Program-made: the position numbers and the translations under genes
Notes under the pieces: model-generated
What the model was told of the DNA's origin: nothing
Database searches by the model: none
What the model saw: the letters and a program-made list of their open reading frames with translations, nothing else
Shown: one piece after another, positions 1 through 41,115 of the stretch
Numbering within the stretch: the stretch's first letter is position 1
Layout: every line of letters begins with the position of its first letter
Source: Patescibacteria group bacterium
Lineage (GTDB): Bacteria; Patescibacteriota; Patescibacteriia; Magasanikbacterales; GWA2-37-8
Assembly (NCBI GenBank): GCA_004321885.1
Contig: SCQK01000007.1
Span: 128,001-192,000, forward strand
DNA length: 64,000 nucleotides
Reading direction: 5' to 3'

Positions 1-2264
1 CGCGCTGGCCGGATGCCTTAAAGCTATTAAATCAGGAACTAAACCGGCTAGTTCGCGAGGTTAAGCGCGCCAAACCGATTATTGAACGGCTATTTAAGAA
101 GGAAGCTGATTTAACTGATGCTTATCGTGAATTTGACGCGGATGTCAACAAGATAAAACTAACCTTGGCAGAAGCAAATACCAAGATATCGGCCGGCGAT
201 TTAGAAGCCGCTTTTAGCATTATTGAAATTGATTTTTTTGATCAAATAGATAACGTGGAACAAAATTACCGCTCCATAATTATCATAAGCAATTTAGGCC
301 GCTTTGCTTCCTATCTTAAACAAAACATTACCACAAGCCAAAACGAAATTAAGTCGTTGAAGAAAAAAGGCATTGATGCGAGCGAACTTCAGGATTTGTT
401 AAGTCATATCAAGACCAACGGCAACGATGTTTTGGCATTGATAAAAGCCAAACCCATTGACGAGGATGCGATTCTTTCCGGAATTCAAGAGATGGACGAA
501 TTAAAACAGGATTTTTCCGACAAAGTAAGCGAAGTTACCGATGGAGAAGAGATGTCGTGGGGTAAAGATGGCAGTTTTTTTTCTAAAACAGAACTATCTT
601 CAAAGGCTGTAGAAGCAATAAGTTGGCTACAGAAACAAGTTAACTGGACCGCCTCTGTTCCTGTAACGAGCATGGATGTTCCATCAAGTGAAACAACATT
701 GACCGCGCCTCAGTCTGGTAATCAATCAACCTCAACACCTTCAAGCGCCACACCGGCAACACCAGCCACTCCAGCGGTCTCTTCTTCTGTCAGCGCCGCC
801 CCGGCTTCACCGGCGGTTCCAGCCACGCCCGCACAACCAGCATTAACCGCAGACACGACGGTTCCTTCCACGCCCACAAATCTAACCGCTAATTCTTCCA
901 GTTCTGTTCAAATTAATCTGGCTTGGACCGCTTCAACAGATAATGTTGGTGTGACTGGTTATCGCATCTATCGCGGAGGCGTCCAAATGGGCACTTCAAA
1001 TACCACTAATTATTCCGATACAGGACTTTCTTCGTTAACTACTTATTCTTATACTGTGGCGGCTTATGATGCGGCTGGTAATGTTTCTCCTCAATCAACT
1101 TCGGCAAGCGCCACAACACAGGCATTAGACACAACTCCGCCTGTCATCTCCTCGGTTTCAGTATCTCTTACCTCCGATTCTGCCACCATTACTTGGACAA
1201 CCAATGAATCTTCTGATTCACAAGCGAGTTATGGGTTGACATCCTCATATGGCAATACAACTCCATTGAACTCTTCTCCGGTTGTTTGGCATTCTGTTTC
1301 GCTTTCAAATTTAACTGGTGGCACAACTTTTCATTACAAAGTAATCTCCACAGATGGTTCAGGGAATAAAACCGAAAGCGGAGATGCAACTTTTACAACA
1401 ACATCTTCTGTCTTGCCAGCACCGAGTTTTCTTACGAAATGGGGTTCTCGGGGTTCTGATAATGGACAGTTTAATTCTCCTTTCGGTATCGCCGTAGATG
1501 CCAGTGGCAATGTTTATGTGGTGGACAGCCACAATCACCGTATTCAGAAATTCACCAGCAATGGCGTGTTTACCACCAAGTGGGGCTCTTCGGGTTCTGG
1601 CGACGGGCAGTTTTCTTACCCTTTCAGCATCGCCGTAAATGCCAGTGGTAATATTTATGTGACGGATGACAATAAGCATATTCAAAAATTTACCAACGAC
1701 GGCACCTTTATCCTCAAATGGGGCTCTTATGGTTCTGGTAATGAGCAGTTTTCTAGTCCTGAGGCTATCGCCGTAGATGCCGGTGGCAATGTTTATGTGG
1801 TGGACAGACCTAATAACCGCGTCCAAAAATTTACTGGGGATGGCACATTTATTACTAAGTGGGGCTCTTCGGGTTCTGGCGACGGGCAGTTTCAAGATCC
1901 TCGTGGTATCGCCATAGATGGTAGTGGCAATGTTTATGTGGTGGATTCCTCCAATAGCCGTGTCCAAAAATTTACTAGCGATGGCGCTTTTATCACTAAG
2001 TGGGGCTCTTCGGGTTCTGGCGATGGACAGTTTTTTACTCCTTTCAATATCGCCGTAGATGCCAGTGGCAATGTTTATGTGGCGGACGGCTACAATAATC
2101 GTGTTCAAAAATTTACCAGCAATGGCGTGTTTATCACCAAGTGGGGCTCTTCGGGTTCTGGCGATGGACAGTTTTCCCTTCCTCGTGGTATCGCCATAGA
2201 TGGTAGTGGCAATGCCTACGTGACGGAAGCCGACAACAGCCGCGTCCAAAAATTCGCTCCGTAA
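1..2264 (+). CDS. 5'-partial surface protein: Ser/Thr/Pro-rich linker, two fibronectin-III-like domains, six NHL (six-bladed beta-propeller) repeats
   Basis: The reading frame is open from the window edge; the track's 165 start is a TTG and there is no in-frame ATG. Six repeats of the form KWGSSGSGDGQF..P.GIAVD.SGNVYV.D..N.RVQKFT are typical NHL blades. Upstream are Fn3-like 'WTASTDNVGVTGYRIYR' and 'ITWTTNESSDSQASYG' segments and an STPA-rich linker. Confidence 0.75.
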   Translation, partial: RWPDALKLLNQELNRLVREVKRAKPIIERLFKKEADLTDAYREFDADVNKIKLTLAEANTKISAGDLEAAFSIIEIDFFDQIDNVEQNYRSIIIISNLGRFASYLKQNITTSQNEIKSLKKKGIDASELQDLLSHIKTNGNDVLALIKAKPIDEDAILSGIQEMDELKQDFSDKVSEVTDGEEMSWGKDGSFFSKTELSSKAVEAISWLQKQVNWTASVPVTSMDVPSSETTLTAPQSGNQSTSTPSSATPATPATPAVSSSVSAAPASPAVPATPAQPALTADTTVPSTPTNLTANSSSSVQINLAWTASTDNVGVTGYRIYRGGVQMGTSNTTNYSDTGLSSLTTYSYTVAAYDAAGNVSPQSTSASATTQALDTTPPVISSVSVSLTSDSATITWTTNESSDSQASYGLTSSYGNTTPLNSSPVVWHSVSLSNLTGGTTFHYKVISTDGSGNKTESGDATFTTTSSVLPAPSFLTKWGSRGSDNGQFNSPFGIAVDASGNVYVVDSHNHRIQKFTSNGVFTTKWGSSGSGDGQFSYPFSIAVNASGNIYVTDDNKHIQKFTNDGTFILKWGSYGSGNEQFSSPEAIAVDAGGNVYVVDRPNNRVQKFTGDGTFITKWGSSGSGDGQFQDPRGIAIDGSGNVYVVDSSNSRVQKFTSDGAFITKWGSSGSGDGQFFTPFNIAVDASGNVYVADGYNNRVQKFTSNGVFITKWGSSGSGDGQFSLPRGIAIDGSGNAYVTEADNSRVQKFAP
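1426..2264 (+). repeat. six tandem ~141-bp near-identical DNA repeats, each encoding one NHL blade
   Basis: 'aagtggggctcttcgggttctggcga(c/t)gg(g/a)cagttt' recurs with a period of 141 nt. Confidence 0.8.
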
Positions 2265-2320
2265 AACAATTAGACCGTTATTAACAAAAAAATTCCGCTT
2301 AAACGGGGCTTGTGGACTGT

Positions 2321-2353
2321 TTACTTCCAAATAGCCAATGTTTGTGGTATAAT
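2321..2353 (+). promoter_or_regulatory. sigma70-like promoter with extended -10 (TGgTATAAT at 2345-2353) for the HU gene
   Basis: TGnTATAAT lies 54 nt upstream of the HU ATG and is followed by a GC-rich short leader. Confidence 0.45.
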
Positions 2354-2406
2354 AAATCCAGTTAATTCTTAACTTGGGCTTGCGCCCTGCGCGGCCCGCA
2401 ATATAT

Positions 2407-2688
2407 ATGGCAGGTTTGACGAAGTCAGCCCTGTTGTCCGCCCTGGCGGAGACAACCGGTCTGGCCAAGAAAGACGTCGTCGGCCTCATGGACGCCATGA
2501 TGGAATTGGCGTACAAAGAGGTCAAGAAAAGCGGGGTATTCGTGGTGCCCGGCTTGGGCAAGCTGGTAAAGGTGCATCGCGCCGCGCGCGAAGGCCGCAA
2601 TCCGGCTACCGGAGCGAGCATCCATATTCCGGCAAAAACCGTGGTGAAATTCCGCGTGGCCAAGGCCGCCAAAGAAGCGGTACTGTAA
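2407..2688 (+). CDS. hup: HU/IHF-family histone-like DNA-binding protein
   Basis: MAGLTKSALL...GVFVVPGLGKLVKVHRAAREGRNPATGASIHIPAKTVVKFR is the canonical HU arm and fold. The likely start is the internal ATG at 2407 (the track ORF starts at 2374). Confidence 0.9.
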   Translation: MAGLTKSALLSALAETTGLAKKDVVGLMDAMMELAYKEVKKSGVFVVPGLGKLVKVHRAAREGRNPATGASIHIPAKTVVKFRVAKAAKEAVL

Positions 2689-2702
2689 AAATTACGTAAA
2701 TT

Positions 2703-2736
2703 AAAAAGACCTCGATTTAACCGGGGTCTTTTTAAT
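2703..2736. terminator. bidirectional rho-independent terminator between convergent genes
   Basis: aaaaGACC-tcgatttaaccgg-GGTCttttt: a stem flanked by an A-run and a T-run. Confidence 0.5.
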
Positions 2737-2742
2737 TTGTTG

Positions 2743-3138
2743 CTAAAATTTGAATTTCTCTCCGTATTGGCCGAGAAGCGGCAGTGGTTCTTGTTTCCCG
2801 CCCAAAGCGTTCATGATGCCCAAAATCAAGAGAATCAACAAACCAATGGAAGCCAACCAGCCCACCACCCAACCGATAAAAGGAATCATAGCGATAATCC
2901 AGGTAACGACCCAGCCAAGGAACAAAGTCAGCCCCTGCTTCACGTGATATTTCACGAACGGATCATTCTTCGCGTCCGTGAGCAGAGGCACGAAGAAAAT
3001 AAGATAAGCGACCACGGCCATGCCGGTATTTTTTTGCGCCTGATTGGGCTGCGGCGGCTGTGCCGGCGGTTGAGGCGGCGGCGTTGGCTGCGGCTGTGGC
3101 GCCGAGGTCGGCGTTTGTCCCATTTGGTTCTCGTCCAT
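2743..3138 (-). CDS. small membrane protein with a Pro/Gln-rich N-terminus and two TM helices (DUF4870/Yip1-like)
   Basis: PQPQPTPPPQPPAQPPQP low-complexity segment, then FVKYHVKQGLTLFLGWVV...IGWVVGWLASIGLLILLILG hydrophobic helices. Confidence 0.6.
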   Translation of the reverse strand: MDENQMGQTPTSAPQPQPTPPPQPPAQPPQPNQAQKNTGMAVVAYLIFFVPLLTDAKNDPFVKYHVKQGLTLFLGWVVTWIIAMIPFIGWVVGWLASIGLLILLILGIMNALGGKQEPLPLLGQYGEKFKF

Positions 3139-3216
3139 AGAGGAAAAAATTAATGACTAAGATAGAGATATGATACACCTTGAACAAAAAACGGGCAATA
3201 GCAAATACCGAGCGCG

Positions 3217-3246
3217 TTGACATCAGCCCTTTTTTTAGGGTATTAT
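3217..3246 (+). promoter_or_regulatory. promoter TTGACA-18-TATTAT directly upstream of the tRNA cluster and tsaD
   Basis: ttgaca at 3217-3222 and tattat at 3241-3246; the tRNA 5' end (3256) is about 10 nt downstream. Confidence 0.5.
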
Positions 3247-19637: not shown

Positions 19638-22022
19638 ATGAACATCATGGACCGTTTTTCCACTCATCTGCGCGAGGCGCTGGTGCGCGGCATCCGCCTG
19701 GCCACCGAGCTGGGCAACGAACAGGTAGAGCCCGCGCATTTGTTGTTCGCGCTCTTTACCCAAAAAGGGTCCGTGGCCGCCGAAATGCTGGTCAAATTCA
19801 AGATTGATTCCAAAACTATTGAACGCGCCATCATGGACCTGCCCTCCAGAAAAAGCGAACGTCAGGAAGGATTCAACGCGCAAATCATCATCACCCCCCT
19901 CTCGGCCGGCGCCAAAGCAGCTATGGAAAAGGCCATCTTATCCGCCCAGGAAAACAGCCACAACTACATCGGCACCGAGCATTTGCTTTACGCGCTTATA
20001 AAAATCAAAGACAATATTTTGGAAAATATTTTCTCCGCCAGCAACACCGACGAGCGCGAACTGTTGGCGCAAGTGGAATCCTTGCTCGCCAACTCCACCA
20101 AATTTCCGGCCATCAGCGAAATGGCCGACATCTTTGAAAAAATCCAAGAAAATTTGGAAGAAAATTTTCTGCCGCCGTCCGCTCCGCGGCCAAACGACAA
20201 AAATAAAAATAAGAAAAAAAACGGGGCCCTGGAATATTTTGCCGCCAATCTCACCAGCCCCGACATCCAAAAATACATTGACCCGGTCATCGGCCGCCAA
20301 GCCGAAATAGAACGTCTGGAGCATATCCTTTGCCGCCGCACCAAAAACAACCCCATCTTGCTCGGCGACCCTGGTGTGGGCAAGACCGCCATTGTGGAAG
20401 GCATGGCCAAAAAAATCCTGGCCAACGACGTGCCTGACATACTGCTGAACAAAAAAATCTATTCGCTGGATATGGGCCTCCTCATCGCCGGCACCATTTA
20501 TCGCGGCGAGTTTGAGGCGCGCATCAAGCAAATCATAGACGAGGTAGCGGCCAATCCCGACATCATTCTTTTCATAGATGAAATCCACAACATCGTGGGC
20601 ACCGGCTCCAATCAGGGCACCATGGACGCGGCCAATATCCTAAAACCGGCCCTGGCCCGCGGGCAAATCCGCTGTATCGGCGCCACCACCCCGGGCGAAT
20701 ACAAAAAATACATTGAAAGCGACCCGGCCCTGGAGCGCCGCTTCCAGCCCATCTACATCAAACAGCCGAGCGTGGAAGAAACTATCAAAATTTTAAGCGG
20801 GGTGCGCAAAAATTACGAACAGTACCACAATCTTAAAATCACCAACTCGGCCATAGAAGCGGCCGTAAAACTCTCCGACCGTTTTATCGCCAATAAACTT
20901 TTGCCGGACAAGGCCATAGATTTACTGGATGAAACCGGCGCGGCCAAGCGTCTGAAAACGCGCTTGCCGCTGGCGGAAAAAATTCATCGCTTCGGCATTA
21001 TTACGGCCGACGACGTAGCCAGACAGCTGGCCAAAATCATCCAAACGCCGGTTGATTCATTGTTGTTAAACGAAAAAGAAAGGCTGGTCTCGCTGGAAGA
21101 CGAGCTGAAAAAATATATCGTGGGCCAAGACGAAACCATCGGCGGGGTGAGCAAGTTTATCCGGCAGGCGCAACTGCAGTTGTCTAATCCCAACCGGCCC
21201 ATGGCTTCGTTTCTGTTTGTCGGCGAAAGCGGGGTGGGCAAAACCGAGCTGGCCAAAGTGATGGCGCAGGCGCTTTATCCCGGCCGCGAGGCGCTCATTA
21301 AGCTGGACATGAGCGAATTCAGCGAAAGCCACAGCGTTTCCAAACTCTTGGGCTCGCCGGCCGGCTATGTGGGCTATCGCGAAAGCAACCAATTGATAGA
21401 CGCGCTAAAAATAAACCCGTACAGCGTGATTTTGTTTGATGAAATAGACAAAGCGCACAAAGACGTTTCCAAATTGCTTTTGCAAATGCTGGAAAACGGC
21501 GAGGCCACTGATTCTTCGGGCAAAAAAGTTTCACTAAAACATTCTGTCATAGTGCTCACCACTTCCTGGGGAGCGCAGGATATCAAAAAATCCGCTTTCG
21601 GATTCAGTGGTAGTAAAACGGACAACAACTGTCATTCCCGCGAAAGCGGGAATCCAGTCGCCAAGGAAACCGAATCCCGCCTCAAAGAAAAACTGAAAGA
21701 ATTTTTCTCGGCCGAACTCATCAATCGGCTGGACAAAATCTTCTTGTTTAATAATTTATCGGCCGAAGATCTCGGTAAAATCGGCCAAATGGAAATTGAA
21801 CGGCTGAACGAACGCCTGAAAAGATACAAAACCGCGGTGGCGGCCGAGCCGGAATTTTTGGACTGGCTTACGCGGGTATCGGCCAAAAACAGCAACGCGC
21901 GCGATGTGCGTCAGGAGGTGCGCGGGGCCATAGAAAACCTGATGGCTGAAATTATTCTCGCCGAAAACATCAAAGACGGCTACTCGCTTTTTGTGGAAGA
22001 AGACCGAATAAGAATACGGTAA
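19638..22022 (+). CDS. clpC: ATP-dependent Clp protease ATP-binding subunit ClpC-like (double Clp-N, two AAA+ modules)
   Basis: Clp N repeats; GDPGVGKT and GESGVGKT Walker A motifs. It carries an in-frame repeat insertion at 21630-21655. Confidence 0.9.
21630..21655. repeat. family C hairpin TGTCATTCCCGCGAAAGCGGGAATCC in-frame in clpC (encodes CHSRESGNP)
   Basis: Perfect hairpin with the TGTCAT terminus. Confidence 0.75.
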
Positions 22023-22108: not shown

Positions 22109-22705
22109 ATGCCACAACAAAACTATGCACAACCATTAGTACAAGAACAGCCCGACCCAATGGCGCCTGATGTCTATGGCGAAGGACCCGCGCGCGCAAC
22201 TGAATCGGAAGAATCCGACGAGCAAAAAGCCGCGCGCGAAGCCGAAGAGGAAGAACGGGAAAACGACCTCGCGCAAAAACGGCAAAAAGACCGCGTGGGC
22301 ACTGGCGTTCGCGGAGCCGTCAATCAAAGCAAGTTCGCCCAAAAAGCTATGGAAATAAAAAATTTTCGCAAAATTAAAAATATAAAAAAAGAAATTCAAG
22401 AAAATGAAAAGGAGAAAACCAAGAAAGAAAAAGAAATAAAAAAAATCAGAAGAAAAATTTTCTGGGGCTGGGTCAGAACCATTGGACTGGTGATAATTAC
22501 GGGCGGCGTAGGCACTTTCATGCTTTTGAAAAAAATGTGGGATTCAAAATCTGAACAGGATAAAATTAAAAAATTAAAAAAGGAAATAAAAGATTTGGAG
22601 AAAAAAATGAAAGAAAAAGAAGAGCAGGTTCAGGATTTAATGATAATTTGGAAGAAAAAACAGCGCGAACAGCCGCAGGAATTTGATAACGCTCCGGCGT
22701 ATTAA
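22109..22705 (+). CDS. hypothetical Lys/Glu-rich coiled-coil protein with one TM helix
   Basis: Low-complexity KEKE repeats flank a GWVRTIGLVIITGGVGTFMLL helix. Confidence 0.5.
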   Translation: MPQQNYAQPLVQEQPDPMAPDVYGEGPARATESEESDEQKAAREAEEEERENDLAQKRQKDRVGTGVRGAVNQSKFAQKAMEIKNFRKIKNIKKEIQENEKEKTKKEKEIKKIRRKIFWGWVRTIGLVIITGGVGTFMLLKKMWDSKSEQDKIKKLKKEIKDLEKKMKEKEEQVQDLMIIWKKKQREQPQEFDNAPAY

Positions 22706-22731: not shown

Positions 22732-23961
22732 TTGTCAATGAATATGTCCGTCAAAAAAATTTTCCTCATCGTCCTCCTGCTTCTGGTGGCGGTTCTTATC
22801 GGTATCGGGCTTTATAAAATGTTTATTGGCGCCAAGCCGGCCGCCAAAATCCCCTATCAACCGCCCGCACCCATTACCCCGGGCGTACTGCCGCCCTCGG
22901 GCGCGCGCACTACGACCGGCGCGGGCGTTCCCGCGGGCGCCATTTTGCCTTCGGCCGGTTTTATGGTGCAAACCTCCACCCCGGCCGGATTCTACAAAGC
23001 CGAGCCAGTCACCCAAATCAGCGCCGACTACGCGGTTTATCCTTCACTGAACCAAACCGGCGGCTTCCGTTATTACAACGCGGCCGACGGCAAATTTTAC
23101 GACATCCGAAACGGCAAAATTACTCCCCTTTCGGACCAGGTCTTTTACAACGCTTCAAACGTCACCTGGGCCAAAAACCGTGACATTGTCGTGATAGAAT
23201 ATCCGGACCAGTCAAAAATCATCTACAATTTTGAAACCGAAAAGCAGGTAACTTTGCCCAAACACTGGAGCGAATTTTCTTTTTCTCCCGAAGGCAAAGA
23301 GATCGCGGCCAAAAGCATTGGCCTGGCCCCGGAAAATCGCTGGTTGGTTACCACGCGAGACGACGGCACCGGCACCAAAACCATAGAACCCATGGGAAAC
23401 AACGCCGACCGCGTGCTGGTGGACTGGTCTCCCAGCCGGCAAGCCGTGGCTTTTTCGCGCACCGGCGAGCCCCTTGGCGCCGAACGCCAGGAAATTTTGC
23501 TCGTTGGCCTGAACGGCGAAAATTTCAAATCCTTGGTGGTTGAGGGCGAAAACTTTTTGCCCAAATGGTCTACCACCGGCAAAAAATTATTATACAGCGT
23601 GGACAGTTCGCGCACGGATTTTAATCCCGAACTCTGGATAAGCGACGCCTATGGCGACCGCATCGGCGATAACAGACAAACCTTAAAATTAAACACCTGG
23701 GCCGACAAGTGCGCTTTCGCGAGCGACGATGCTTTGTACTGCGCCGTGCCCAAAGAATTGCCCCAGGGCGCGGGCATGGCGCGCGACATTGCCAACGGCC
23801 TGGCCGACGAATTGTACAAAATTGACCTGCGCACCGGTCTCAAAACAGTCGTGCCCCTGGGCGGCGATTACAATATCACCAATATTTCTTTTGATGCCGC
23901 CAAATCCGCGTTGTATTTCACGGATTTAAATAAGAGCGGGGTGTTTGAAAGCAAATTATGA
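22732..23961 (+). CDS. membrane-anchored TolB-like (PD40/WD40-like beta-propeller) protein
   Basis: N-terminal TM, then repeated FSFSPEGKEIA, VDWSPSRQAVAFS and PKWSTTGKKLLYS blades. Confidence 0.65.
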   Translation: MSMNMSVKKIFLIVLLLLVAVLIGIGLYKMFIGAKPAAKIPYQPPAPITPGVLPPSGARTTTGAGVPAGAILPSAGFMVQTSTPAGFYKAEPVTQISADYAVYPSLNQTGGFRYYNAADGKFYDIRNGKITPLSDQVFYNASNVTWAKNRDIVVIEYPDQSKIIYNFETEKQVTLPKHWSEFSFSPEGKEIAAKSIGLAPENRWLVTTRDDGTGTKTIEPMGNNADRVLVDWSPSRQAVAFSRTGEPLGAERQEILLVGLNGENFKSLVVEGENFLPKWSTTGKKLLYSVDSSRTDFNPELWISDAYGDRIGDNRQTLKLNTWADKCAFASDDALYCAVPKELPQGAGMARDIANGLADELYKIDLRTGLKTVVPLGGDYNITNISFDAAKSALYFTDLNKSGVFESKL

Positions 23962-24611
23962 CCAAAAAATTTTTCTTGGTGCTCGGCTTAATTCTTATTG
24001 CGACCGGTCTTTTATTCTACAAGCAAATCCGCCGCGCCCTCGGCATTACTGTCACGCCCAATGCCCTGCCGCTTATTGAATTTACCAGCGTCAATATTCC
24101 AGAAGGCGGTTTCACTCCTGTTTTGGGCAACCCGGGCGCGGACATCACCGTAGTGGAATTCGCGGACTTTGCCTGCGGCGAGTGTAAAAAAATTCATTAC
24201 GGTTTAAGCGATTACATCGCAAAAAACCCGCAAAAGGCGCGCCTGATTTGGCGAGGCGTGCCGGCCGGAAAATGGTACGCGGCCGGAAACACACTATCTC
24301 ACCAGGCCTCTTATTGCGCCGACAAGCAGGGCAAATTTTGGCAATTCGCGGCCATGGCCATGTCTGATAAAAATAATCTAACCGAAGCCGGACTGAAAAA
24401 AATGGCTGAGGGTTTGAATCTAAATTTGGTTGCCTGGGGGCGCTGTGCCAACTCCGAAGAAGCCAAACAGGCGGTAACAGCGAACTCCGACATTGCCGCC
24501 GGTCTCGGCATCCGCGCGCTGCCGGGCATTTTTATTAACAACCGCCGCATCAATCTGGACGCCCAGGCCGACATCGTGGAAATTCTCAAAAAATTCGTGG
24601 AAAAAGAATAA
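23958..24611 (+). CDS. DsbA-like thioredoxin-fold thiol-disulfide oxidoreductase
   Basis: N-terminal TM; VVEFADFACGECKK CxxC motif in a DsbA-like context. Confidence 0.7.
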   Translation: MTKKFFLVLGLILIATGLLFYKQIRRALGITVTPNALPLIEFTSVNIPEGGFTPVLGNPGADITVVEFADFACGECKKIHYGLSDYIAKNPQKARLIWRGVPAGKWYAAGNTLSHQASYCADKQGKFWQFAAMAMSDKNNLTEAGLKKMAEGLNLNLVAWGRCANSEEAKQAVTANSDIAAGLGIRALPGIFINNRRINLDAQADIVEILKKFVEKE

Positions 24612-24616
24612 AATTG

Positions 24617-24724
24617 CTGGGGCTCCATAGTCCGAAGTCTCGCCGCTGGCTCCATACTGTGTGTGGAGCCACAATGCACCCTGGCTCCATAGTCCCCGAC
24701 TCAATCGGGGCTGTGGAGCCAGCC
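24617..24724. repeat. family E nested hairpin repeats (GGCTCCATAG ... CTGTGGAGCC)
   Basis: ctggctccatactgtgtgtggagcc and ctggctccatagtccccgactcaatcggggctgtggagccagcc; a related copy sits inside folC (40468-40555). Confidence 0.8.
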
Positions 24725-24731
24725 ATCAATT

Positions 24732-26231
24732 ATGTCCCGTAAAATTTTTCTCACAATCTTTCTCGCCGCGCTTTTGTTTTCTTTTGCCAGCGCTGATTTC
24801 ACGCTGGCGGCGGATTATTGCCGCGTAAAATTAGATGTGACTGCTGTCAGTAAAACCACTCTTGCTTGCTACGACATTAGCGCTTTATCAAATTATCCAA
24901 AGTTCAAAGGAAAAGAGGCGGGAGATATCTGCAATGAATTTTACGGCGACTTGGAAAACCAGGAACCGACCGTTAAAAACTATACAGCCCATGAATGTGT
25001 TTCGGCAGAGTCTTTGGAAGAGTGCAAAAAAGGAAATGAAGCGCCGGCCTGCCCCAAAACAAAACTGGAAGTAATCACAAAATTAACAGCTGAACTAAGA
25101 CCGCCGGCCACGGCTATCCGCATTCCCGGGCTTTCTTTCAGCGAGATAAACAAAAATATTACCGAAGACGCGGCGGGAAATAAATATCTCAACATCCCCT
25201 GGATAGGTGAAATGCTTACAGCCGTGTACAAATTCGCCATCACCATTGTCAGCATCGTGGCCGTGATAATGATTATCATTCAGGGCGCGCGGGTGGTGAC
25301 ATCCGGCGGAGGCGAAGCCAAAATGGACGCGTACAAAAAAATCATTCAGGCCATCATCGGCCTGGCCATCGCCTGGGGTTCTTACGCGATTTTATATAAC
25401 ATCAATCCGGATTTGGTGACCTTCAAGGCGTTGAAGGTGAGATATATCCAACCCATACCAATGCCAGAATTCGCGGATGATTTACAAACCACAAAAAATG
25501 ATACAACCAGTGATTCAAGCGGGTATTCTTCTGTGTTTGCAAATTGTCCAATAACTCTATCAGCTCCATTTTCGCCAAGTGGAAACCCCGCAAACGAAGC
25601 GCGAACAAAAGAATTTTATGACAAAATAAATTCGGTTATTAAGGGTACTACTTTAAGCGACAAAATATTACAAATCGCCGAAGCCGCTTCAAAATGTCAG
25701 ATTCATTTTGGCTCATGCGGAAGAACAATAGGAACTGTTTATACACTGGCTGGTATTACTACAAAAAGTTACGGCAGTGATTGCTTAACAAAACCAAAAG
25801 GATGCTGGACGCATGAACAGTCAAAACAACTTAACACCATATCAAGTAGCTTGATAAAATCATTTCCAAACTACCGTTGCGGACGAGATTGTAAAGGAAA
25901 CAAAGACAGCCCGAGCGGCTGTGCTAATTCGGACAAGGAAGCGAGAAAAAAAATGTTGAGCACTCTGCTATCTGACTCCAACTTGACCAGTAAAGGGTGG
26001 CCGGATACTTGGGCTAATGATTTAAAACCTGGAGATACATTCTGGGTTTACAATGGGAATACGAGTTGTTCCGGATTGCATACCGCGTTATTTTTAGGGT
26101 GGGCGTCAGATGGCGTCGCAAAAGTTATCCAAGGAGCAGCTGGCAAAGCGGTTGGTATGGGGTCCATTTGCATCAAAAAAAGTTGTGGGGAAAGAATGAA
26201 TCCTTTAATAAAAACTTTTCGGCCACAATGA
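24732..26231 (+). CDS. secreted Cys-rich protein with a pilin-like (TrbC/VirB2-like) double-TM hairpin and a C-terminal CHAP/NlpC-P60-like Cys-His hydrolase domain
   Basis: Signal peptide; TM hairpin VYKFAITIVSIVAVIMIII...IIQAIIGLAIAWGSYAIL; C-terminal ...FGSCGRTIG... (Cys) and GDTFWVYNG...GLHTALFLGW (His), which matches CHAP-type motif order. Confidence 0.45.
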   Translation: MSRKIFLTIFLAALLFSFASADFTLAADYCRVKLDVTAVSKTTLACYDISALSNYPKFKGKEAGDICNEFYGDLENQEPTVKNYTAHECVSAESLEECKKGNEAPACPKTKLEVITKLTAELRPPATAIRIPGLSFSEINKNITEDAAGNKYLNIPWIGEMLTAVYKFAITIVSIVAVIMIIIQGARVVTSGGGEAKMDAYKKIIQAIIGLAIAWGSYAILYNINPDLVTFKALKVRYIQPIPMPEFADDLQTTKNDTTSDSSGYSSVFANCPITLSAPFSPSGNPANEARTKEFYDKINSVIKGTTLSDKILQIAEAASKCQIHFGSCGRTIGTVYTLAGITTKSYGSDCLTKPKGCWTHEQSKQLNTISSSLIKSFPNYRCGRDCKGNKDSPSGCANSDKEARKKMLSTLLSDSNLTSKGWPDTWANDLKPGDTFWVYNGNTSCSGLHTALFLGWASDGVAKVIQGAAGKAVGMGSICIKKSCGERMNPLIKTFRPQ

Positions 26232-26326
26232 AAAATCCAACTTCAACATTTTTTTGTTCCAACTGCGGCGCCCAGTTCATGAAGTGGACCGGACGGCCCA
26301 CCCACTTGAACTCGCAATATTTATGA
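26228..26326 (+). pseudogene. duplicated 5' fragment of radA (zinc-ribbon N-terminus), 32-codon remnant
   Basis: MKNPTSTFFCSNCGAQFMKWTGRP parallels the radA N-terminus FICSNCDAQFTKWVGKC, with high nucleotide similarity to 26335-26395. Confidence 0.55.
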
Positions 26327-27759
26327 AAGATGGCTTTAAAACAATTTTTATCTGCTCAAATTGCGACGCGCAATTTACCAAGTGGGTGGGTAAATGTTTG
26401 GAATGCGGGAAGTGGGGAACAATTGAAAAATCCCAATTTCCAATTTCCAATTTCCAATCAAATTCCAAACTCCAAAATCCAAACACCCAAAATTATCCAC
26501 CAGTAACGACGAAAAGACTTTCAGAGATAGACAGCGCGGAAGCCAAAAGGATAAAAACAAACATTGATGAATTAGACAGAGTGCTTGGAGGGGGGCTCGT
26601 GCCGGGCTCCCTTGTTTTATTGGGCGGCGAGCCGGGCATCGGCAAATCCACTTTGGCAGCGCAATTGGCGGCCGCGATTCCCAACACCTTATATATTTCC
26701 GGCGAAGAATCCGCCGAACAGATTAAATTGCGCTTTGAGCGATTGGGGATTCCGGGTCAAGCCCGGAATGACAATAATGAGACCTTGCGCTTCGCGAACG
26801 CGACGAGCGTGGAGAGTGTGATAGCGGCCATGGATTCCCCCGTACTTAGTCGGGGGAATGACAGTAAAAACGAGACGGTCGGAATGACAAAACCACAACT
26901 CGTTATTGTTGACTCAATTCAGACAACGAGATCAGACGAAGTAGAGGGCGAGGCCGGAAGTATAAACCAAGTGCGGGCCTGCGCGGTTAAACTCATGGAA
27001 GCGGCAAAATCCACGGGCGTACCGATTGTTTTAATCGGCCAAGTGACCAAAGACGGCGCCGTGGCCGGCCCCAAAACCCTGGAACATCTGGTGGACACTG
27101 TGCTCTATCTGGAAGGCGACCGCTTTCACCAATTCAGAATCTTGCGCGCCGCCAAAAATCGCTTTGGCTCAACCGATGAAGTCGGAATTTTTTCCATGGA
27201 AGAAAACGGCCTGCGAGAAGTGAAAAATCCATCGGCCGCGTTTTTGTCCGGACGCGAAGAAAATGTGCCCGGCTCTTGCGTTACCTGCCTGATGGAAGGC
27301 ACCCGTCCCCTGCTGATTGAAGTGCAGGCGCTCGTAACAAAAACTAACTTCGGCTATCCCCAGCGCCGGGCCTCGGGCTTTGACCTAAACCGCTTGCAAG
27401 TGCTTATCGGCGTGCTGACCAAACGCGCCGGACTGCCGCTGGACACTTATGATGTATTTTTGAATGTCGTGGGCGGGATAAGCGCCGAGGAACCGGCCGT
27501 GGACTTGGCCGTGGTGCTCTCCATCGCTTCGGCCACGAAAAACAAACAACTGCCCAAGGGGCTGGCCGCTTTTGGCGAAGTGGGTTTGGGCGGCGAAGTG
27601 CGCGCCGTCAGCCAAGCCAAAAAACGTCTGGATGAAATCAAAAAAATGGGATTTGAATTCGCCGTGGTGCCGGCTTCTTCCGAAGAATACAAAGCGGGCG
27701 GCATCAAAATCGCGCCGGTAAAAAATGTGAAAGAATTAGTAGAAAGGATTGTCTTGTGA
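26323..27759 (+). CDS. radA: DNA repair protein RadA/Sms
   Basis: C4 zinc ribbon; RecA-like GGEPGIGKST Walker A; KNRFG motif; Lon-like C-terminus. It carries in-frame repeat insertions at 26432-26493, 26748-26773 and 26832-26863. Confidence 0.92.
   Translation: MKDGFKTIFICSNCDAQFTKWVGKCLECGKWGTIEKSQFPISNFQSNSKLQNPNTQNYPPVTTKRLSEIDSAEAKRIKTNIDELDRVLGGGLVPGSLVLLGGEPGIGKSTLAAQLAAAIPNTLYISGEESAEQIKLRFERLGIPGQARNDNNETLRFANATSVESVIAAMDSPVLSRGNDSKNETVGMTKPQLVIVDSIQTTRSDEVEGEAGSINQVRACAVKLMEAAKSTGVPIVLIGQVTKDGAVAGPKTLEHLVDTVLYLEGDRFHQFRILRAAKNRFGSTDEVGIFSMEENGLREVKNPSAAFLSGREENVPGSCVTCLMEGTRPLLIEVQALVTKTNFGYPQRRASGFDLNRLQVLIGVLTKRAGLPLDTYDVFLNVVGGISAEEPAVDLAVVLSIASATKNKQLPKGLAAFGEVGLGGEVRAVSQAKKRLDEIKKMGFEFAVVPASSEEYKAGGIKIAPVKNVKELVERIVL
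26432..26493. repeat. family B heptamer array (CCAATTT)n plus degenerate units, in-frame in radA (encodes FPISNFQSNSKLQNP...)
   Basis: cccaatttccaatttccaatttccaatcaaattccaaactccaaaatccaaacac. Confidence 0.85.
26748..26773. repeat. family C hairpin GGATTCCGGGTCAAGCCCGGAATGACA in-frame in radA
   Basis: Same subfamily as 34358-34383. Confidence 0.8.
26832..26863. repeat. family C hairpin GGATTCCCCCGTACTTAGTCGGGGGAATGACA in-frame in radA (encodes DSPVLSRGNDS)
   Basis: Identical to 4512-4543 and 33789-33819. Confidence 0.85.
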
Positions 27760-27838: not shown

Positions 27839-30013
27839 TTACTCCAAATGCACTGCATTCTCCCACTCTTTAATCTTCGCCGTTAAGGTCGGAAATTTCC
27901 CCAATCTCGGCGCCACTTGCCGCGCCGCCTCGCGCGCTTTTTTTATTATCTCTTTATCCGTCAGCTTGGCCAAACGCAAATTCATAAACCCGCTCTGGGC
28001 CGTGCCATAGACCTCGCCGGGCCCGCGCATTTCCAAATCCTTTTCCGCCAGCTTGAACCCGTCGTTATTTTTTTCAAAAAATCGCAGGCGCTCCAGGGCG
28101 CGCGGCGACTCCTGCTCCACGAACAAAAAACAATATGACTGATGAACCGAACGCCCCACCCGGCCGCGAAATTGGTGTAACTGGGCCAATCCAAACCTCT
28201 CGGCCCCCTCTATCATCATCACGCTGGTGTTTGGAATATCCACACCCACCTCCACCACAGACGTGGAAACCAAAATATCCAACTCGCGCTTCCTGAATTT
28301 TTCCATTGTCCCGTCTTTTTCTTTTGGTTTGAGGCGTCCATGCAAATATCCCACCCGCAAATCCGGAAATATATTTTTTGAAAGTTTTTCAAATTCTGAA
28401 AGCACCGATTTCTTGTCGTCTTTTGGAAATTGGAAATTGGAAATTGGAAATTCTTCGTTGTTTGCCCCAATTAAAGGGCAAACAACGAAGCACTGCCTGC
28501 CTTTTTTTACTTGTTCGCGGATAAAAGTGTACGCCTTGACGCGATTTACCGGCTCCACCAGCCGCGTCAAAATTTTCTTGCGGCCCGGCGGCAATTCGTT
28601 GATAATGGAAACATCCAGGTCGCCGTAAACCATGAGGGCCAGAGAGCGCGGTATCGGCGTGGCGGTCATGCTCAAAAAATGCGCGCCGCCTCCCTTTTCT
28701 TTTATCGTCTTTCTCTGCCCCACCCCGAAACGATGCTGTTCATCCACAATCACCAAACCCAATCTTTCAAACTCCACTCCTTCTGTCAGTAAAGCATGTG
28801 TGCCAATAATAATTTGAATATTATTACTCTTGATCTTTTCCAAAAAATCTTTTTTATTAAATTTTGAAAATTGGTCATTGGTCATTGATTGGAAATTGGA
28901 AATTGGAAATTGGGATTTTGAACCAGTCAATAAGCCCACTTTAACTTTATGCCCAAGAAGATTAACGATTGAATTATAATGTTGCACCGCAAGTATCTCG
29001 GTGGGCGCCATCAGCACGGCTTGGTAGCCATTCAAAGCCGCGTTGTACATGGCCATAGCCGCCACCACGGTCTTGCCCGAACCGACATCGCCCGACAGCA
29101 GGCGATTCATCGGCGTGGTTTTTTGCAAGTCCTGTAAAATTTCCCAGGCCGAAATTTTTTGCGTTTTGGTTAGTGTAAAAGGCAAACTCGCCACAAATTC
29201 CTTGATGGCGTTTTCGTTAAAAGCGAGGGACGGGGCTTTGGCGTCGGCTTTTTCCAGCCGCGACAGTTCGGCTTTAAGCTGAATCAAAAATAACTCATCA
29301 AATTTCAGACGCTCGGTGCTTTTGGCCAAATCAATTTCATCTTTGGGAAAGTGAATACCCTGCAAAGCCGATGATAAAGGCGCTAAATCATACTTGTCTA
29401 AAATTTCATCAGGCAGCCATTCTTGCATTGCGGCCGATAATACAATCACCTGGCTAACCAAAAAACGAATCTGTTTTTGGGTCAGCCCGGCCGTAAGCGG
29501 ATACATCGGCACCAGTCGCGCCGTGTGGGTCGTATACAAACCCTCCCCTTTCAGAGCCTGCCCTGAACTTGTTTCAGGGGGAGGGACAGAGGGTGGGGTA
29601 TTCACTCGCTCATACACCGGCCCAATCATCTGCGCCCCCAACATATCGGTCCGCGCCTTGCCCGACAAAAAAACCTCGTCCCCGGGCCTAAGCGTCTTGC
29701 CAATAAACGGCTGATTAAACCAGACCACGCGCAAACTACCGCTCGCGTCCGAAACCAGCGCTTCGGTGATGTTTTTTCTCTGACGCGGACTGCGCTTGTT
29801 GGCGATGAGCTCAACTTTGGCGCGCACTGTCACCGCCTCCCCGTGTTTCAGGTCGGCGATTTTTACCACGCTCCGAAAATCCTCGTAACGGAAAGGAAAA
29901 TAAAAAAGAAGGTCGGCCGCCGTGGCCACACCCAAACGCTCCAGCCGCTTGGCCGTGGTCTTGCCCACTCGGGAAAGTTGTGAGATTGGGGTGTTTAAGT
30001 TCATAATCAGCAT
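27839..30013 (-). CDS. recG: ATP-dependent DNA helicase RecG
   Basis: Wedge domain; DVGSGKT Walker A; DEQHRFG; helicase C motifs. It carries in-frame insertions of family B (28424-28454, 28866-28916) and a nested A/D repeat (29537-29607). Confidence 0.92.
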   Translation of the reverse strand: MLIMNLNTPISQLSRVGKTTAKRLERLGVATAADLLFYFPFRYEDFRSVVKIADLKHGEAVTVRAKVELIANKRSPRQRKNITEALVSDASGSLRVVWFNQPFIGKTLRPGDEVFLSGKARTDMLGAQMIGPVYERVNTPPSVPPPETSSGQALKGEGLYTTHTARLVPMYPLTAGLTQKQIRFLVSQVIVLSAAMQEWLPDEILDKYDLAPLSSALQGIHFPKDEIDLAKSTERLKFDELFLIQLKAELSRLEKADAKAPSLAFNENAIKEFVASLPFTLTKTQKISAWEILQDLQKTTPMNRLLSGDVGSGKTVVAAMAMYNAALNGYQAVLMAPTEILAVQHYNSIVNLLGHKVKVGLLTGSKSQFPISNFQSMTNDQFSKFNKKDFLEKIKSNNIQIIIGTHALLTEGVEFERLGLVIVDEQHRFGVGQRKTIKEKGGGAHFLSMTATPIPRSLALMVYGDLDVSIINELPPGRKKILTRLVEPVNRVKAYTFIREQVKKGRQCFVVCPLIGANNEEFPISNFQFPKDDKKSVLSEFEKLSKNIFPDLRVGYLHGRLKPKEKDGTMEKFRKRELDILVSTSVVEVGVDIPNTSVMMIEGAERFGLAQLHQFRGRVGRSVHQSYCFLFVEQESPRALERLRFFEKNNDGFKLAEKDLEMRGPGEVYGTAQSGFMNLRLAKLTDKEIIKKAREAARQVAPRLGKFPTLTAKIKEWENAVHLE
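28424..28454. repeat. family B (GGAAATT)4 array in-frame in recG (encodes EFPISNFQFP)
   Basis: ttggaaattggaaattggaaattggaaattc. Confidence 0.85.
28866..28916. repeat. family B heptamer array with TTGGTCA variants, in-frame in recG (encodes SQFPISNFQSMTNDQFS)
   Basis: gaaaattggtcattggtcattgattggaaattggaaattggaaattggga. Confidence 0.85.
29537..29607. repeat. family A hairpin carrying a nested family D hairpin (29553-29580) in its loop, all in-frame within recG
   Basis: caaaccctcccctttcaGAGCCTGCCCTGAACTTGTTTCAGGgggagggacagagggtggggtattc. Confidence 0.75.
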
Positions 30014-39067: not shown

Positions 39068-39739
39068 ATGACAAAATCAACCATACAAAAAATTGTATTC
39101 ACAATCATATTTGTAGCCATCGGCTTCGGCCTGATGCAAGTGCCATTTACCCAGCTGATAGGCTCAAAATTAAAATTCACTTTGTTTGATTTTTACGGCC
39201 CAATCGCCGGCGGATTTCTGGGTTCGGTTTGGGGTATGATTACGGTTTTGGCAATGCAAATCGCCAACTGGGCTTGGCACGGATTTAACACCGAAACAGC
39301 CACCCTTATTCGCTTTTTCCCCATGCTGTTCGCGGTTTTGTACTTTGCCAGAAAATCACGCGCCATTTTGGCAGTGCCGGTCATCGCCATGCTCGTGTTT
39401 TGGGCGCATCCCGAGGGCAGGCAGGCTTGGCACTTCGCTCTGTATTGGCTGATTCCTTTGGCAGCGCACTTTTTCCGAAATAAAATTTTGTTCGCGCGCG
39501 CTTTGGGCACGACCTTTACGGCCCACGCGGTGGGCGGCGCATTGTGGATTTGGTTTGTGCCCGGCATGAAGGCCGCGGCCTGGATAGGCCTCATTCCGGT
39601 GGTTTGGAAAGAACGCGGGCTGATGGCAATCGGCATTACCTTGTCTTTCGTCGTCTTCAATTTCCTCTTCAGCCTGGCCGCTAAAAAAATCCGGGGCCTG
39701 GACTTTCTGAAACTTCACCCAAAGTATTCGGTCAAATGA
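39068..39739 (+). CDS. polytopic membrane protein, possibly an ECF-transporter S-component-like protein (next to folC)
   Basis: Six to seven TM helices, about 220 aa, translationally coupled to folC. The family assignment is tentative. Confidence 0.35.
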   Translation: MTKSTIQKIVFTIIFVAIGFGLMQVPFTQLIGSKLKFTLFDFYGPIAGGFLGSVWGMITVLAMQIANWAWHGFNTETATLIRFFPMLFAVLYFARKSRAILAVPVIAMLVFWAHPEGRQAWHFALYWLIPLAAHFFRNKILFARALGTTFTAHAVGGALWIWFVPGMKAAAWIGLIPVVWKERGLMAIGITLSFVVFNFLFSLAAKKIRGLDFLKLHPKYSVK

Positions 39740-41115
39740 ACTTCCAAGAGGCCTACAATTACATAATCTCCCTGGCCAATATTCCGCGCAAAGAATACAT
39801 GGCCGACCCCAAACATTGCCCCTGGTACTTAAAACGGTTGAAGTTTTTTTTGCGTATTTTGGGAAATCCGGAGAAAAAAATACCCCACATCATACACGTT
39901 ACCGGCACCAGCGGCAAGGGTTCGGTCTGCCTGATGTTGGACTCCATTCTGCGTGAAGCGGCCCGCCACCGCGCCAAAAATTTTGGTGTGGTGGGCACGC
40001 TCACATCGCCTCACGCCTCGGCCATTATGGAGCGCTGGGAAGTAAACGGCCGGCCAATGCCTAAAAAAGAATTCGCGGCGCTGGTAGAAAAAATCAAGCC
40101 CAAACTGGACCAGTATATGCGCAAAACGCCGTATGACATGCTCGCCTACGGCGAACTGGCCACGGCTATGGCGCTTTACTATTTCGCCAAAAAAAAAATA
40201 GAATGGGCCGTGCTGGAAGTGGGCTGCGGCGGACGCTATGATTCCACCAATGTAATCCCGCGCAAAGATGTGGCCGTGATAACTAATATCGGCCTTGATC
40301 ATACGCAAACACTCGGCAATACCAAAGAAAAAATCGCCTATGAAAAAGCCGGCATTATCAAACGCGGATGCCAGGTGTTCACGATGGAAACAAACAAAAA
40401 AATTCTGCGCGTGATAGAAAAAGAATGCCAAAAAAATCACGCCCCGCTTAAAATTGTCTACCCCTTAGGCTGGCTCCATAGTTCCGCCAAAGGCGGACTG
40501 TGGAGCCAACGAATGCACTCTGGCTCCACAGCCCTTTGGGACTATGGAGCCAGCCGCCTCCCGGTTCTCGGCGCCCATCAACAAAAAAACGCGGCCCTCG
40601 CGGCCGCGGTGGCGCGTTCAATCGGCATCTCCGAAAAAGCAATCACGCGCGGCCTGGCCAAAGTAAAATTGCCAATCAGAATGGAAGTCGTTTCGCGCAA
40701 GCCCATAGTCATCTTAGACGGCGCGCACAACAAGGACAAAATGCAAACAACAGTGGAAGCAATCTCCTCCCCCTTTATAAGGGGGAGGCGTGGTGGGGGT
40801 AGGGGTAACATCCACCTCATCCTCGGCTTTGCCGACAATAAGGACTACCCGGCCATGCTCAAACAGCTCGCGGCGCTAAAACCAACCACCGTCGCCTGCA
40901 CCCGCTTCAGCCACAATTTCTTCCGCAAGGCCGCGGACCCCAAAATCCTGGCGGCCAAAATAAAAAAACTGCTTCCCCGCGCCAAAACCGAAATTTTTTT
41001 GGATGTTTTAGACGGCTTCAGCTGGAGCAAAAAACAAGCCGCGCCCAGCGACATTATCCTCTGCACCGGCTCCATATTCCTAAGCGGCGAATTGCGTCTC
41101 AAAATTATCAGGTGA
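39736..41115 (+). CDS. folC: folylpolyglutamate synthase/dihydrofolate synthase (Mur ligase family)
   Basis: HVTGTSGKGS P-loop; NIGLDH. It carries in-frame repeat insertions at 40468-40555 (family E) and 40762-40809 (family A). Confidence 0.85.
   Translation: MNFQEAYNYIISLANIPRKEYMADPKHCPWYLKRLKFFLRILGNPEKKIPHIIHVTGTSGKGSVCLMLDSILREAARHRAKNFGVVGTLTSPHASAIMERWEVNGRPMPKKEFAALVEKIKPKLDQYMRKTPYDMLAYGELATAMALYYFAKKKIEWAVLEVGCGGRYDSTNVIPRKDVAVITNIGLDHTQTLGNTKEKIAYEKAGIIKRGCQVFTMETNKKILRVIEKECQKNHAPLKIVYPLGWLHSSAKGGLWSQRMHSGSTALWDYGASRLPVLGAHQQKNAALAAAVARSIGISEKAITRGLAKVKLPIRMEVVSRKPIVILDGAHNKDKMQTTVEAISSPFIRGRRGGGRGNIHLILGFADNKDYPAMLKQLAALKPTTVACTRFSHNFFRKAADPKILAAKIKKLLPRAKTEIFLDVLDGFSWSKKQAAPSDIILCTGSIFLSGELRLKIIR
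40468..40555. repeat. family E double hairpin in-frame in folC (encodes GWLHSSAKGGLWSQRMHSGSTALWDYGASR)
   Basis: ggctggctccatagttccgccaaaggcggactgtggagcc...ctggctccacagccctttgggactatggagccagcc. Confidence 0.8.
40762..40809. repeat. family A hairpin in-frame in folC (encodes SPFIRGRRGGGRGN)
   Basis: tcctccccctttataagggggaggcgtggtgggggtaggggtaac. Confidence 0.8.

Follow-up and report, generated by a model that had tools for sequence, protein, structure and literature searches.

A VirB2-pilin-like membrane module joined to an exchangeable, predicted peptidoglycan-hydrolase head in a chromosomal cassette of Patescibacteria

Introduction

VirB2-like pilins of the family PF18895 are widespread in Patescibacteria, often near virB4 and sometimes in arrays (PMC12102498; PMC10633639; PMC12857230), and they are essential for the epibiotic growth of a cultured Saccharibacterium, Southlakia epibionticum (PMC10633639). 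A survey found few homologues of VirB1 and most VirB2-containing genomes without one, and pilus biogenesis may not need it; in the class ABY1, type IV secretion system (T4SS) loci commonly lie near, or include, recG and radA (PMC12102498). Fusions of VirB2-like pilins with hydrolases are not mentioned in PMC12102498 or PMC10633639. Here we analyze a stretch of 64,000 nucleotides (the window; positions 128,001 to 192,000 of the forward strand of contig SCQK01000007.1, GenBank assembly GCA_004321885.1) from a Patescibacteria group bacterium of the Magasanikbacterales, and in particular a gene at 24732-26231 whose product of 499 amino acids (aa) joins a VirB2-like hairpin to a predicted wall hydrolase.

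The 499-aa protein has in common with the VirB2-like pilins of Patescibacteria (PMC12102498, PMC10633639) a signal peptide, a two-helix hairpin with a short loop, similarity to PF18895 at the family level, and the phylum itself. Those pilins are small and often arrayed near virB4, whereas the 499-aa protein bears an N-terminal domain of ~100 aa and a C-terminal domain of ~260 aa, and its gene lies between clpC and radA in a window that holds no T4SS gene. VirB1-type hydrolases of monoderm conjugation systems, such as PrgK of pCF10, TraG of pIP501 and the Orf14/CD419-like NlpC/P60 enzymes of Tn916, differ in having a single N-terminal transmembrane (TM) anchor rather than a pilin-like hairpin, and they are encoded in the T4SS operons of mobile elements, unlike the gene studied here. 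To our knowledge, a cartridge-type exchange of heads at a fixed chromosomal locus has not been described for them. Pilin-hydrolase fusions, a clpC-radA cassette, propeller and DsbA partners of this kind and head swapping were not described in the literature that we searched, which is no proof of their absence.

Results

The pilin-like module of the 499-aa protein

The gene is the last of four that follow one another on the plus strand. Its product is identical to NCBI EPN28_02165, annotated as a 'hypothetical protein' of a Patescibacteria metagenome-assembled genome (MAG) and encoded on a contig of 214 kb. The analysis established how the domains are arranged, which fold they have, which residues and gene order are conserved, and that heads are swapped; all functional statements are computational, and topology, disulfide pattern, catalysis, substrate and partner interactions were inferred. 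The parts of the cassette are:

22109..22705, + strand: gene 1, 198-aa protein with an acidic disordered N-terminus, a TM helix and Lys-rich coiled-coil flanks
22732..23961, + strand: gene 2, 409-aa membrane-anchored seven-bladed PD40-type beta-propeller
23958..24611, + strand: gene 3, 217-aa membrane-anchored DsbA-like thiol-disulfide oxidoreductase (Pfam, CGEC)
24612..24731, + strand: intergenic spacer with palindromic GGCTCCATAGTCC-type repeats (repeat count, RNA fold)
24732..24794, + strand: gene 4, Sec-type signal peptide, residues 1-21 (..SFASA before the predicted cleavage site, D after it)
24795..25094, + strand: gene 4, variable Cys-rich N-terminal ectodomain, residues 22-121, 6 Cys
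25095..25451, + strand: gene 4, conserved module of ~118 aa, residues 122-240, with a VirB2/T4SS_pilin-like hairpin (PF18895)
25542..26228, + strand: gene 4, C-terminal head, residues 271-499, predicted divergent NlpC/P60-CHAP-fold cysteine hydrolase

A hydrophobic segment (residues 5-23) and an AXA motif mark the signal peptide. The ectodomain that follows cannot be aligned between homologues, in which it ranges from 0 to 370 aa and usually has an even number of Cys residues. The module begins with a lead-in of the form IPGLxFS...IPWIGE and ends in the tail NINPxLVxFKALKV; between them lie TM1 (165-183; 25224-25280), the short loop TSGGGEAKMDAYKK and TM2 (204-222; 25341-25397). Residues 241-270, rich in Ser, Thr and Asp, link the module to the head.

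The resemblance of this double TM hairpin to T4SS pilins, proposed from the sequence alone, finds support mainly at the level of the family. The sole Pfam match of the 499-aa protein is to PF18895 (T4SS_pilin; residues 157-215, profile positions 4-62 of 71), at 21.9 bits (E 1.9e-4), below the cut-off of 26.6, and NCBIfam gave a weak match to the Mbov_0395 pilin-like conjugal transfer family. The same C-terminal domain occurs in 22 other members of the family. Among the 21 that are full-length (35-57% identity), 17 match PF18895 at E <= 0.01, the best at 7.3e-8, and many family members carry a precomputed PF18895 match. Judged from these profile matches, the pilin signal of the module is solid at the level of the family. 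The module is moreover 50-68% identical in 55 further proteins that have nothing else in common with the 499-aa protein, and ~40 of its conserved residues lie outside the membrane, which is far more conservation than a passive anchor would need.

VirB2/TrbC pilins have a signal peptide and, after it, two hydrophobic helices with a short polar or basic loop between them, and the protein shows this arrangement. It is not, however, a small stand-alone subunit of roughly 70-150 aa, its hairpin being flanked by large domains, and it is not encoded with virB3, virB4 or virB6, none of which was found beside the fusion in the window or in the flanks of more than 40 related loci. Given a cleaved signal peptide, we infer that the hairpin runs out-in-out, so that both large domains face outward, with which the Cys content and the adjacent DsbA gene agree. 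The protein is therefore predicted to be held in the membrane by its hairpin, with both large domains outside the cell. It had been taken for a secreted Cys-rich protein; the signal peptide and the 17 Cys residues (6 in the N-domain, 11 in the head) uphold the Cys-rich and exported part of that description, but it appears to be membrane-anchored rather than freely secreted.

A predicted cysteine hydrolase without sequence-profile relatives

The head (~230 aa) has the order Cys...His and the KPGD motif (432-435) followed by H450 on which an assignment to the CHAP/NlpC-P60 hydrolases had been based. Its predicted nucleophile is Cys329 (25716-25718); the other residues of interest are His450 (26079-26081), Gln467 (26130-26132) and G434-D435. 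In the structural model the head has a papain-like alpha+beta fold, in which Cys329 is the first residue of a helix (68-78 in domain numbering) and His450 opens a strand (188-198) after the invariant G434-D435. These features agree with the assignment, but the head matches neither PF00877, PF05257 nor any related sequence profile. A Pfam search with 20 heads at E <= 10 returned no recurring wall-hydrolase family (one isolated match to Amidase_6, E 0.038), and a profile built from the 20 heads gave chance matches only against all PDB sequences. An hhalign comparison with the NlpC/P60 and CHAP-like heads of the family aligned 27 columns (LKPGD...H) at E 0.014 and low probability, a result to be read as consistency only. 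Foldseek found nothing in the PDB at E <= 1e-3, with a weak enrichment for the same NlpC/P60-CHAP families (best E 0.03). The structures listed for the head, with the value listed for each, are:

6bim, NlpC1: 8.3
7cfl, Acd24020: 8.2
5d74, Ly7917: 8.2
8wt3, CwlO: 7.9
6b8c, SagA: 7.5
8i2f, LytE: 7.3
4olk, LysGH15 CHAP: 7.2
4hpe, Tn916-like Orf17: 7.2

Conservation was counted over 123 representatives clustered at <=50% identity. His450 and Gly434 are present in 123/123, Cys329 in 121/121, Asp435 in 122/123 and Asn443 in 114/123. Residue 467, at His+17, is mostly polar (Q68, N13, E13, S10, M6, D4), and a polar third residue at this distance is what we take to be the CHAP spacing (compare C54/H117/E134 of LysK/LysGH15). 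By this count Cys329 and His450 are conserved as a catalytic dyad should be, and are predicted to form one. Of 111 complete proteins, 103 have an odd number of Cys residues C-terminal to the module, as expected from disulfides plus one free nucleophile.

An exhaustive phmmer search with the head through 1.84 billion representatives returned 188 relatives, in which the domain is nearly always C-terminal, in proteins of 350-700 aa. We examined 214 proteins, drawn from 78 proteins found with the 499-aa protein as query and the best 150 of the 188 head relatives; the head profile matched 159 of them, 132 with the pilin module and the rest mostly fragments. With the NlpC/P60 (PF00877) and CHAP (PF05257) enzymes, such as CwlO, LytE, MepS and LysGH15/LysK, the head shares the papain-like fold, a Cys at the N-terminus of a helix, and a 'PGD' strand followed by His. 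It differs from them in having no detectable sequence-profile similarity, in being about twice the size of the core (238 versus ~110 aa), with a helical N-terminal part and several predicted disulfides, and in being restricted to pilin-module fusions. We suggest that it is a new sequence-orphan branch of the NlpC/P60-CHAP fold that current sequence profiles do not see.

Conservation of the cassette

Nine contigs, reached by way of homologues, share one gene order: pgm on the minus strand, then clpC, gene 1, propeller, DsbA, in some cases one extra gene, one or two pilin fusions and radA, followed by recG on the minus strand. A scan of GTDB with one genome per species found 36 loci, mainly in Magasanikbacteria and also in Uhrbacteria and Komeilibacteria. 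Wherever enough upstream DNA was available (32/32 loci), the propeller and DsbA genes come immediately before the pilin fusion, clpC lies ahead of them and radA follows, so that the three genes expected to occur together in related genomes do so. We conclude that Patescibacteria of the class ABY1 (Magasanik-, Uhr- and Komeilibacteria) carry a chromosomal cassette of four genes, which stands between clpC and radA. No similarity to it was found in phage records, plasmid records or IMG/VR viral contigs, and it is thus not obviously borne by mobile elements. Many of the GTDB representative MAGs with the cassette are titled 'uncultured Gammaproteobacteria bacterium' (our loci L014, L017-L019, L021, L024, L027, L028 and others) and one 'Candidatus Udaeobacter', which is evidently wrong.

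A related arrangement was found in a contig labelled 'Saccharibacteria' (CAYHZE010000032.1, locus L048), near yidC, rnpA, dnaA and dnaN. Here three consecutive genes (310-3224) encode a secreted protein of 341 aa, a free-standing VirB2-like pilin of 189 aa and a TM-anchored propeller of 435 aa. The pilin is 47% identical over the hairpin to the 499-aa protein, and the propeller, directly after it, is homologous over its full length (23% identity, E 4e-19). This one data point suggests that the pairing of pilin and propeller also exists outside the clpC-radA cassette and is older than the ABY1 cassette.

Exchange of heads at a fixed junction

No more than 8 of the 36 GTDB loci have the head found in the window. 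When the C-terminal regions of 48 pilin-fusion genes at the locus were clustered, they gave 16 unrelated groups, in which Pfam confirmed the SLT, C39_2, VanY, Amidase_2, M15_4 and M23 heads:

New NlpC/CHAP-like head: 10 genes
SLT: 6 genes
Peptidase_C39_2: 6 genes
VanY: 5 genes
Amidase_2: 4 genes
Cluster 5, no Pfam assignment (CHAP-like by eye): 4 genes
Cluster 6, no Pfam assignment (SLT-like by eye): 3 genes
Cluster 7, no Pfam assignment: 2 genes
M15_4, M23 (two separate singletons) and five other singletons: 1 gene each

The type of head does not follow the propeller tree. Loci L036 and L043 have propellers that are 96% identical, yet the former carries a C39_2 head and the latter a VanY head. 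Their DNA is ~90% identical across 7.8 kb upstream and 6.2 kb downstream, the only non-homologous stretch being 8339-9033 in L036 and 8339-8988 in L043; the proteins are 93% identical to residue 171, four past the module, and unrelated thereafter. In 8 of 9 comparisons of differently headed proteins, similarity is lost 4-67 aa (mostly 4-34) after the end of the module, the ninth having an incomplete module match. On these alignments the module end is the apparent recombination junction and the head an exchangeable cartridge, and the conserved module tail and radA could act as homology arms for its replacement. No immunity-like gene accompanies the head in L036 and L043, where the non-homologous segment stops at the stop codon and radA is directly next.

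This arrangement is reminiscent of polymorphic toxin and effector systems (CdiA-CT, Rhs, LXG and the X-Tfe T4SS effectors of Xanthomonas), which likewise combine a constant part, a sharp junction motif (here ..NPxLVxFKALKV..) and unrelated, exchanged C-termini. As in those systems, a constant N-terminal part is joined at a sharp boundary to unrelated C-termini in close relatives, but no cognate immunity gene is exchanged together with the head. The cassette is also unlike them in having only predicted wall hydrolases as heads and a membrane hairpin as its constant part, and in being a core chromosomal operon.

Several genomes have two pilin-module genes in tandem, each with a different head (e.g., SLT and M23, or the new head and VanY). 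L016 has perhaps three, the first two of which overlap in different reading frames and could be a single gene with a frameshift. The tandem loci are:

L010, 10001-13963
L012, 7001-9615
L014, 7494-10512
L016, 7625-10105
L021, 2911-6194
L041, 5003-9119

Partner genes

The propeller protein, described from the sequence as a membrane-anchored PD40 beta-propeller, is indeed one: a TM helix (residues 5-33) and a disordered Pro-rich linker (34-88) precede seven blades (93-408; 23008-23955), with PD40 repeats, a propeller fold and an invariant pair, Cys327 and Cys337. Its homologues make up at least 1757 clusters, and the best 120 of these are 55-75% identical and nearly constant in length (399-427 aa). 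The suggestion that it is TolB-like had to be dropped. It scores 15 bits against the TIGR02800 equivalog, where the cut-off is 343, and it lacks the TolB architecture of a six-bladed propeller with an N-terminal alpha/beta domain.

The 217-aa protein is a CxxC thioredoxin-fold protein, as had been proposed, with matches above the cut-offs to Thioredoxin_4 (E 2.1e-14, 54.5 bits versus 23.2) and DSBA (E 7.5e-9, 36.1 bits versus 25.6), a TM helix (6-24) and a CGEC active site (residues 73-76; 24174-24185). The membrane-anchored DsbA-like proteins of monoderms, BdbD of Bacillus and MdbA of Actinobacteria, fold pilins and other secreted envelope proteins. The 217-aa protein resembles them in its N-terminal TM anchor, thioredoxin fold and CxxC, and is unlike them in that its gene is the immediate neighbor of the gene for a single evident Cys-rich client. 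A partner of the DsbB or VKOR kind was not seen among the scanned ORFs (open reading frames) of the window, in which small membrane ORFs were not systematically searched.

Gene 1, upstream of the three genes first noticed, is part of the same conserved block. Its product has a single TM helix (residues 122-140). The positional counterparts after clpC in loci L002-L013 have the same architecture in 244-834 aa, and phmmer finds no sequence similarity between them and gene 1, which is thus conserved in position and architecture only.

Neighborhood and other features of the window

The three ORFs of the sequence-only reading (22732-23961, 23958-24611 and 24732-26231) are real genes, co-directional and uninterrupted, and its interpretation holds overall once TolB and free secretion are corrected. 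NCBI (EPN28_02155) starts the propeller four codons later, at 22744. The propeller and DsbA-like genes overlap by 4 bp, and 120 bp separate the latter from the pilin-hydrolase gene. The scan for promoters and terminators gave no signal above the shuffled background, and no terminator was seen between the genes; the operon structure is deduced from spacing and synteny.

Upstream lies clpC (19638-22022), followed by gene 1; downstream are radA (26254-27759) and, on the minus strand, recG (27839-30013). Other content of the window is of the housekeeping kind: dnaE, pheST, pgm, lytR-cpsA-psr, der, dprA and a Mur ligase, as well as topA, relA, parAB, an extracytoplasmic function (ECF) sigma factor, femAB and gyrA. 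T4SS genes did not turn up in the window; Pfam on 30 further ORFs, including all other large ones, returned housekeeping families only. Among six window ORFs checked that lack an informative Pfam assignment there was no Walker-A ATPase candidate, and the window holds no further pilin-module paralogue.

The palindromic GGCTCCATAGTCC-type repeats of the spacer (24612-24731) can fold, as RNA, into a pair of strong hairpins (-60.7 kcal/mol, z = -5.9). The repeat, GGCTCCATAGTCC / GGACTGTGGAGCC, is dispersed, with 8 copies in the window against 0.9 expected, and further copies lie at 40472-40551 and 41068-41080, within or next to the Mur-ligase ORF (39736-41115). It looks like an element of the REP (repetitive extragenic palindromic) or MITE (miniature inverted-repeat transposable element) kind. 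A tandem heptanucleotide, (CCAATTT)3-4, occurs in frame in radA (26433-26460) and in recG on the minus strand (28424-28450 and 28890-28916), each block encoding FPISNFQ in linker regions of RadA and RecG. Short GC-rich palindromes of the types TGTCATTCCCGCGAAAGCGGGAATCC and GTCAAGCCCGGAATGACAA stand in frame in clpC (21630-21656) and radA (~26755-26790, encoding GQARNDNNE) and look like small palindromic elements tolerated in coding sequence. The gyrA gene (54681-58319, 1212 aa) contains an intein (Pfam Intein_splicing, residues 134-508) that interrupts the DNA_topoisoIV domain. A second large surface-type propeller protein, not related to the cassette, is encoded at 165-2264; its 699 aa comprise fibronectin-III and purple-acid-phosphatase-N-like domains and a six-bladed NHL propeller (NHL E 2.4e-47).

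Discussion

We consider it probable that the 499-aa protein is a membrane-tethered, disulfide-stabilized peptidoglycan hydrolase whose hairpin works with the propeller as a platform and whose head is exchangeable. In this scenario, Sec export and cleavage of the signal peptide would leave the Cys-rich N-domain outside, the VirB2-pilin-like hairpin (out-in-out) would fix the protein in the membrane, and the C-terminal domain would stand outside on a linker of ~45 residues. The adjacent membrane-anchored DsbA-like enzyme may form the disulfides, three pairs in the N-domain and five in the head, leaving Cys329 free. The head, using Cys329 and His450 with Gln467, would cut stem-peptide or amide bonds of peptidoglycan. 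The highly conserved, membrane-anchored propeller, and probably also the coiled-coil membrane protein, would serve as the fixed platform or partner of the hairpin module.

As to whose wall is cut, we lean, at somewhat less than even odds, toward the producer's own, which the enzyme would open locally; the work of a VirB1-like protein or an autolysin would then be done by an enzyme physically fused to a VirB2-like subunit. This leaning rests on the tether with its short linker, the housekeeping setting of the locus, the missing immunity gene, and the fact that VirB1-type 'gap makers' are indifferent to bond type. Action on the wall of a host or competitor seems the less likely of the two, but it is what the very recent and repeated replacement of heads, the variable Cys-rich N-domains and the essential role of VirB2-like pilins in epibiosis would suggest.

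Several observations can be read in favor of a different role. The 48 genes at this one orthologous locus bear 16 types of head, and a clean swap separates genomes whose propellers are 96% identical, a pattern that polymorphic effectors and endolysins typically show. The N-domains vary and are rich in Cys, a cultured Saccharibacterium needs its VirB2-like pilins for epibiotic growth (PMC10633639), and ABY1 T4SS loci commonly lie near recG and radA (PMC12102498). All of these would suit a host-directed 'armed pilin'. In such a scenario, the VirB2-like module would be pulled out of the membrane and become part, probably as a minor subunit or at the tip, of a T4SS-type filament whose genes lie elsewhere in the genome. 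The hydrolase head, together with the Cys-rich N-domain acting in binding, would be presented to the wall of a host or competitor, and heads would be exchanged to match its chemistry or to escape inhibitors. We nevertheless regard this as rather unlikely, as the window has no T4SS gene, no immunity gene accompanies the swapped segment, which ends at the stop codon with radA next, and the locus is of the housekeeping kind and absent from viral, phage and plasmid collections. A load of ~130 aa plus ~275 aa per subunit is also sterically implausible in a homopolymeric VirB2 pilus, a limit known from the structures of F- and T-pili. The housekeeping neighborhood of clpC, radA, recG and pgm, the sub-threshold PF18895 score of the 499-aa protein and the mostly hydrophobic helices of the matched region point in another direction, to an ordinary growth or division autolysin with the hairpin as a mere anchor, its pilin likeness convergent or compositional, and with the propeller and DsbA doing general envelope housekeeping. 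That is improbable in our view, given that the module is 50-68% identical across unrelated heads, including ~40 conserved non-membrane residues, that 17 of 21 homologues match PF18895, down to 7e-8, and that in a distant lineage (L048) the gene of a free-standing pilin immediately precedes that of a propeller homologue, which speaks for a specific partnership of pilin and propeller. Least probable of all, we suspect, is that the head does not act on peptidoglycan but is a papain-like protease, a transglutaminase or a deamidase acting on proteins, for example to mature pilins or other proteins of the surface, or else a binding domain devoid of catalytic activity.

The most far-reaching version, in which the propeller helps to extract the armed subunit and assemble it into a T4SS-type surface structure with which an ultrasmall bacterium drills the wall of its host, is unlikely, more so than the filament subunit as such. 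If it were true, the exchange of heads (endopeptidase, amidase, lytic transglycosylase, carboxypeptidase, M23) would track the wall chemistry of the host, the cassette would be a polymorphic effector system without an immunity gene, and it would take the place of the 'missing VirB1' in the T4SSs of Patescibacteria.

Much of bacterial diversity belongs to the Patescibacteria, most of which are uncultured. The cassette described here adds a subfamily of pilin-like modules covalently joined to predicted wall hydrolases, one head family of which is invisible to current profiles; the NlpC/P60-CHAP superfamily gains a new member family. The fusion always travels with a highly conserved propeller and a DsbA in a core chromosomal slot. 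Genomes that are otherwise nearly identical can differ in the head, which is exchanged like a cartridge at a defined junction. For work on the function of these pilins, the cassette offers an enzyme that can be assayed, the motif at the junction and a possible interaction between pilin and propeller.

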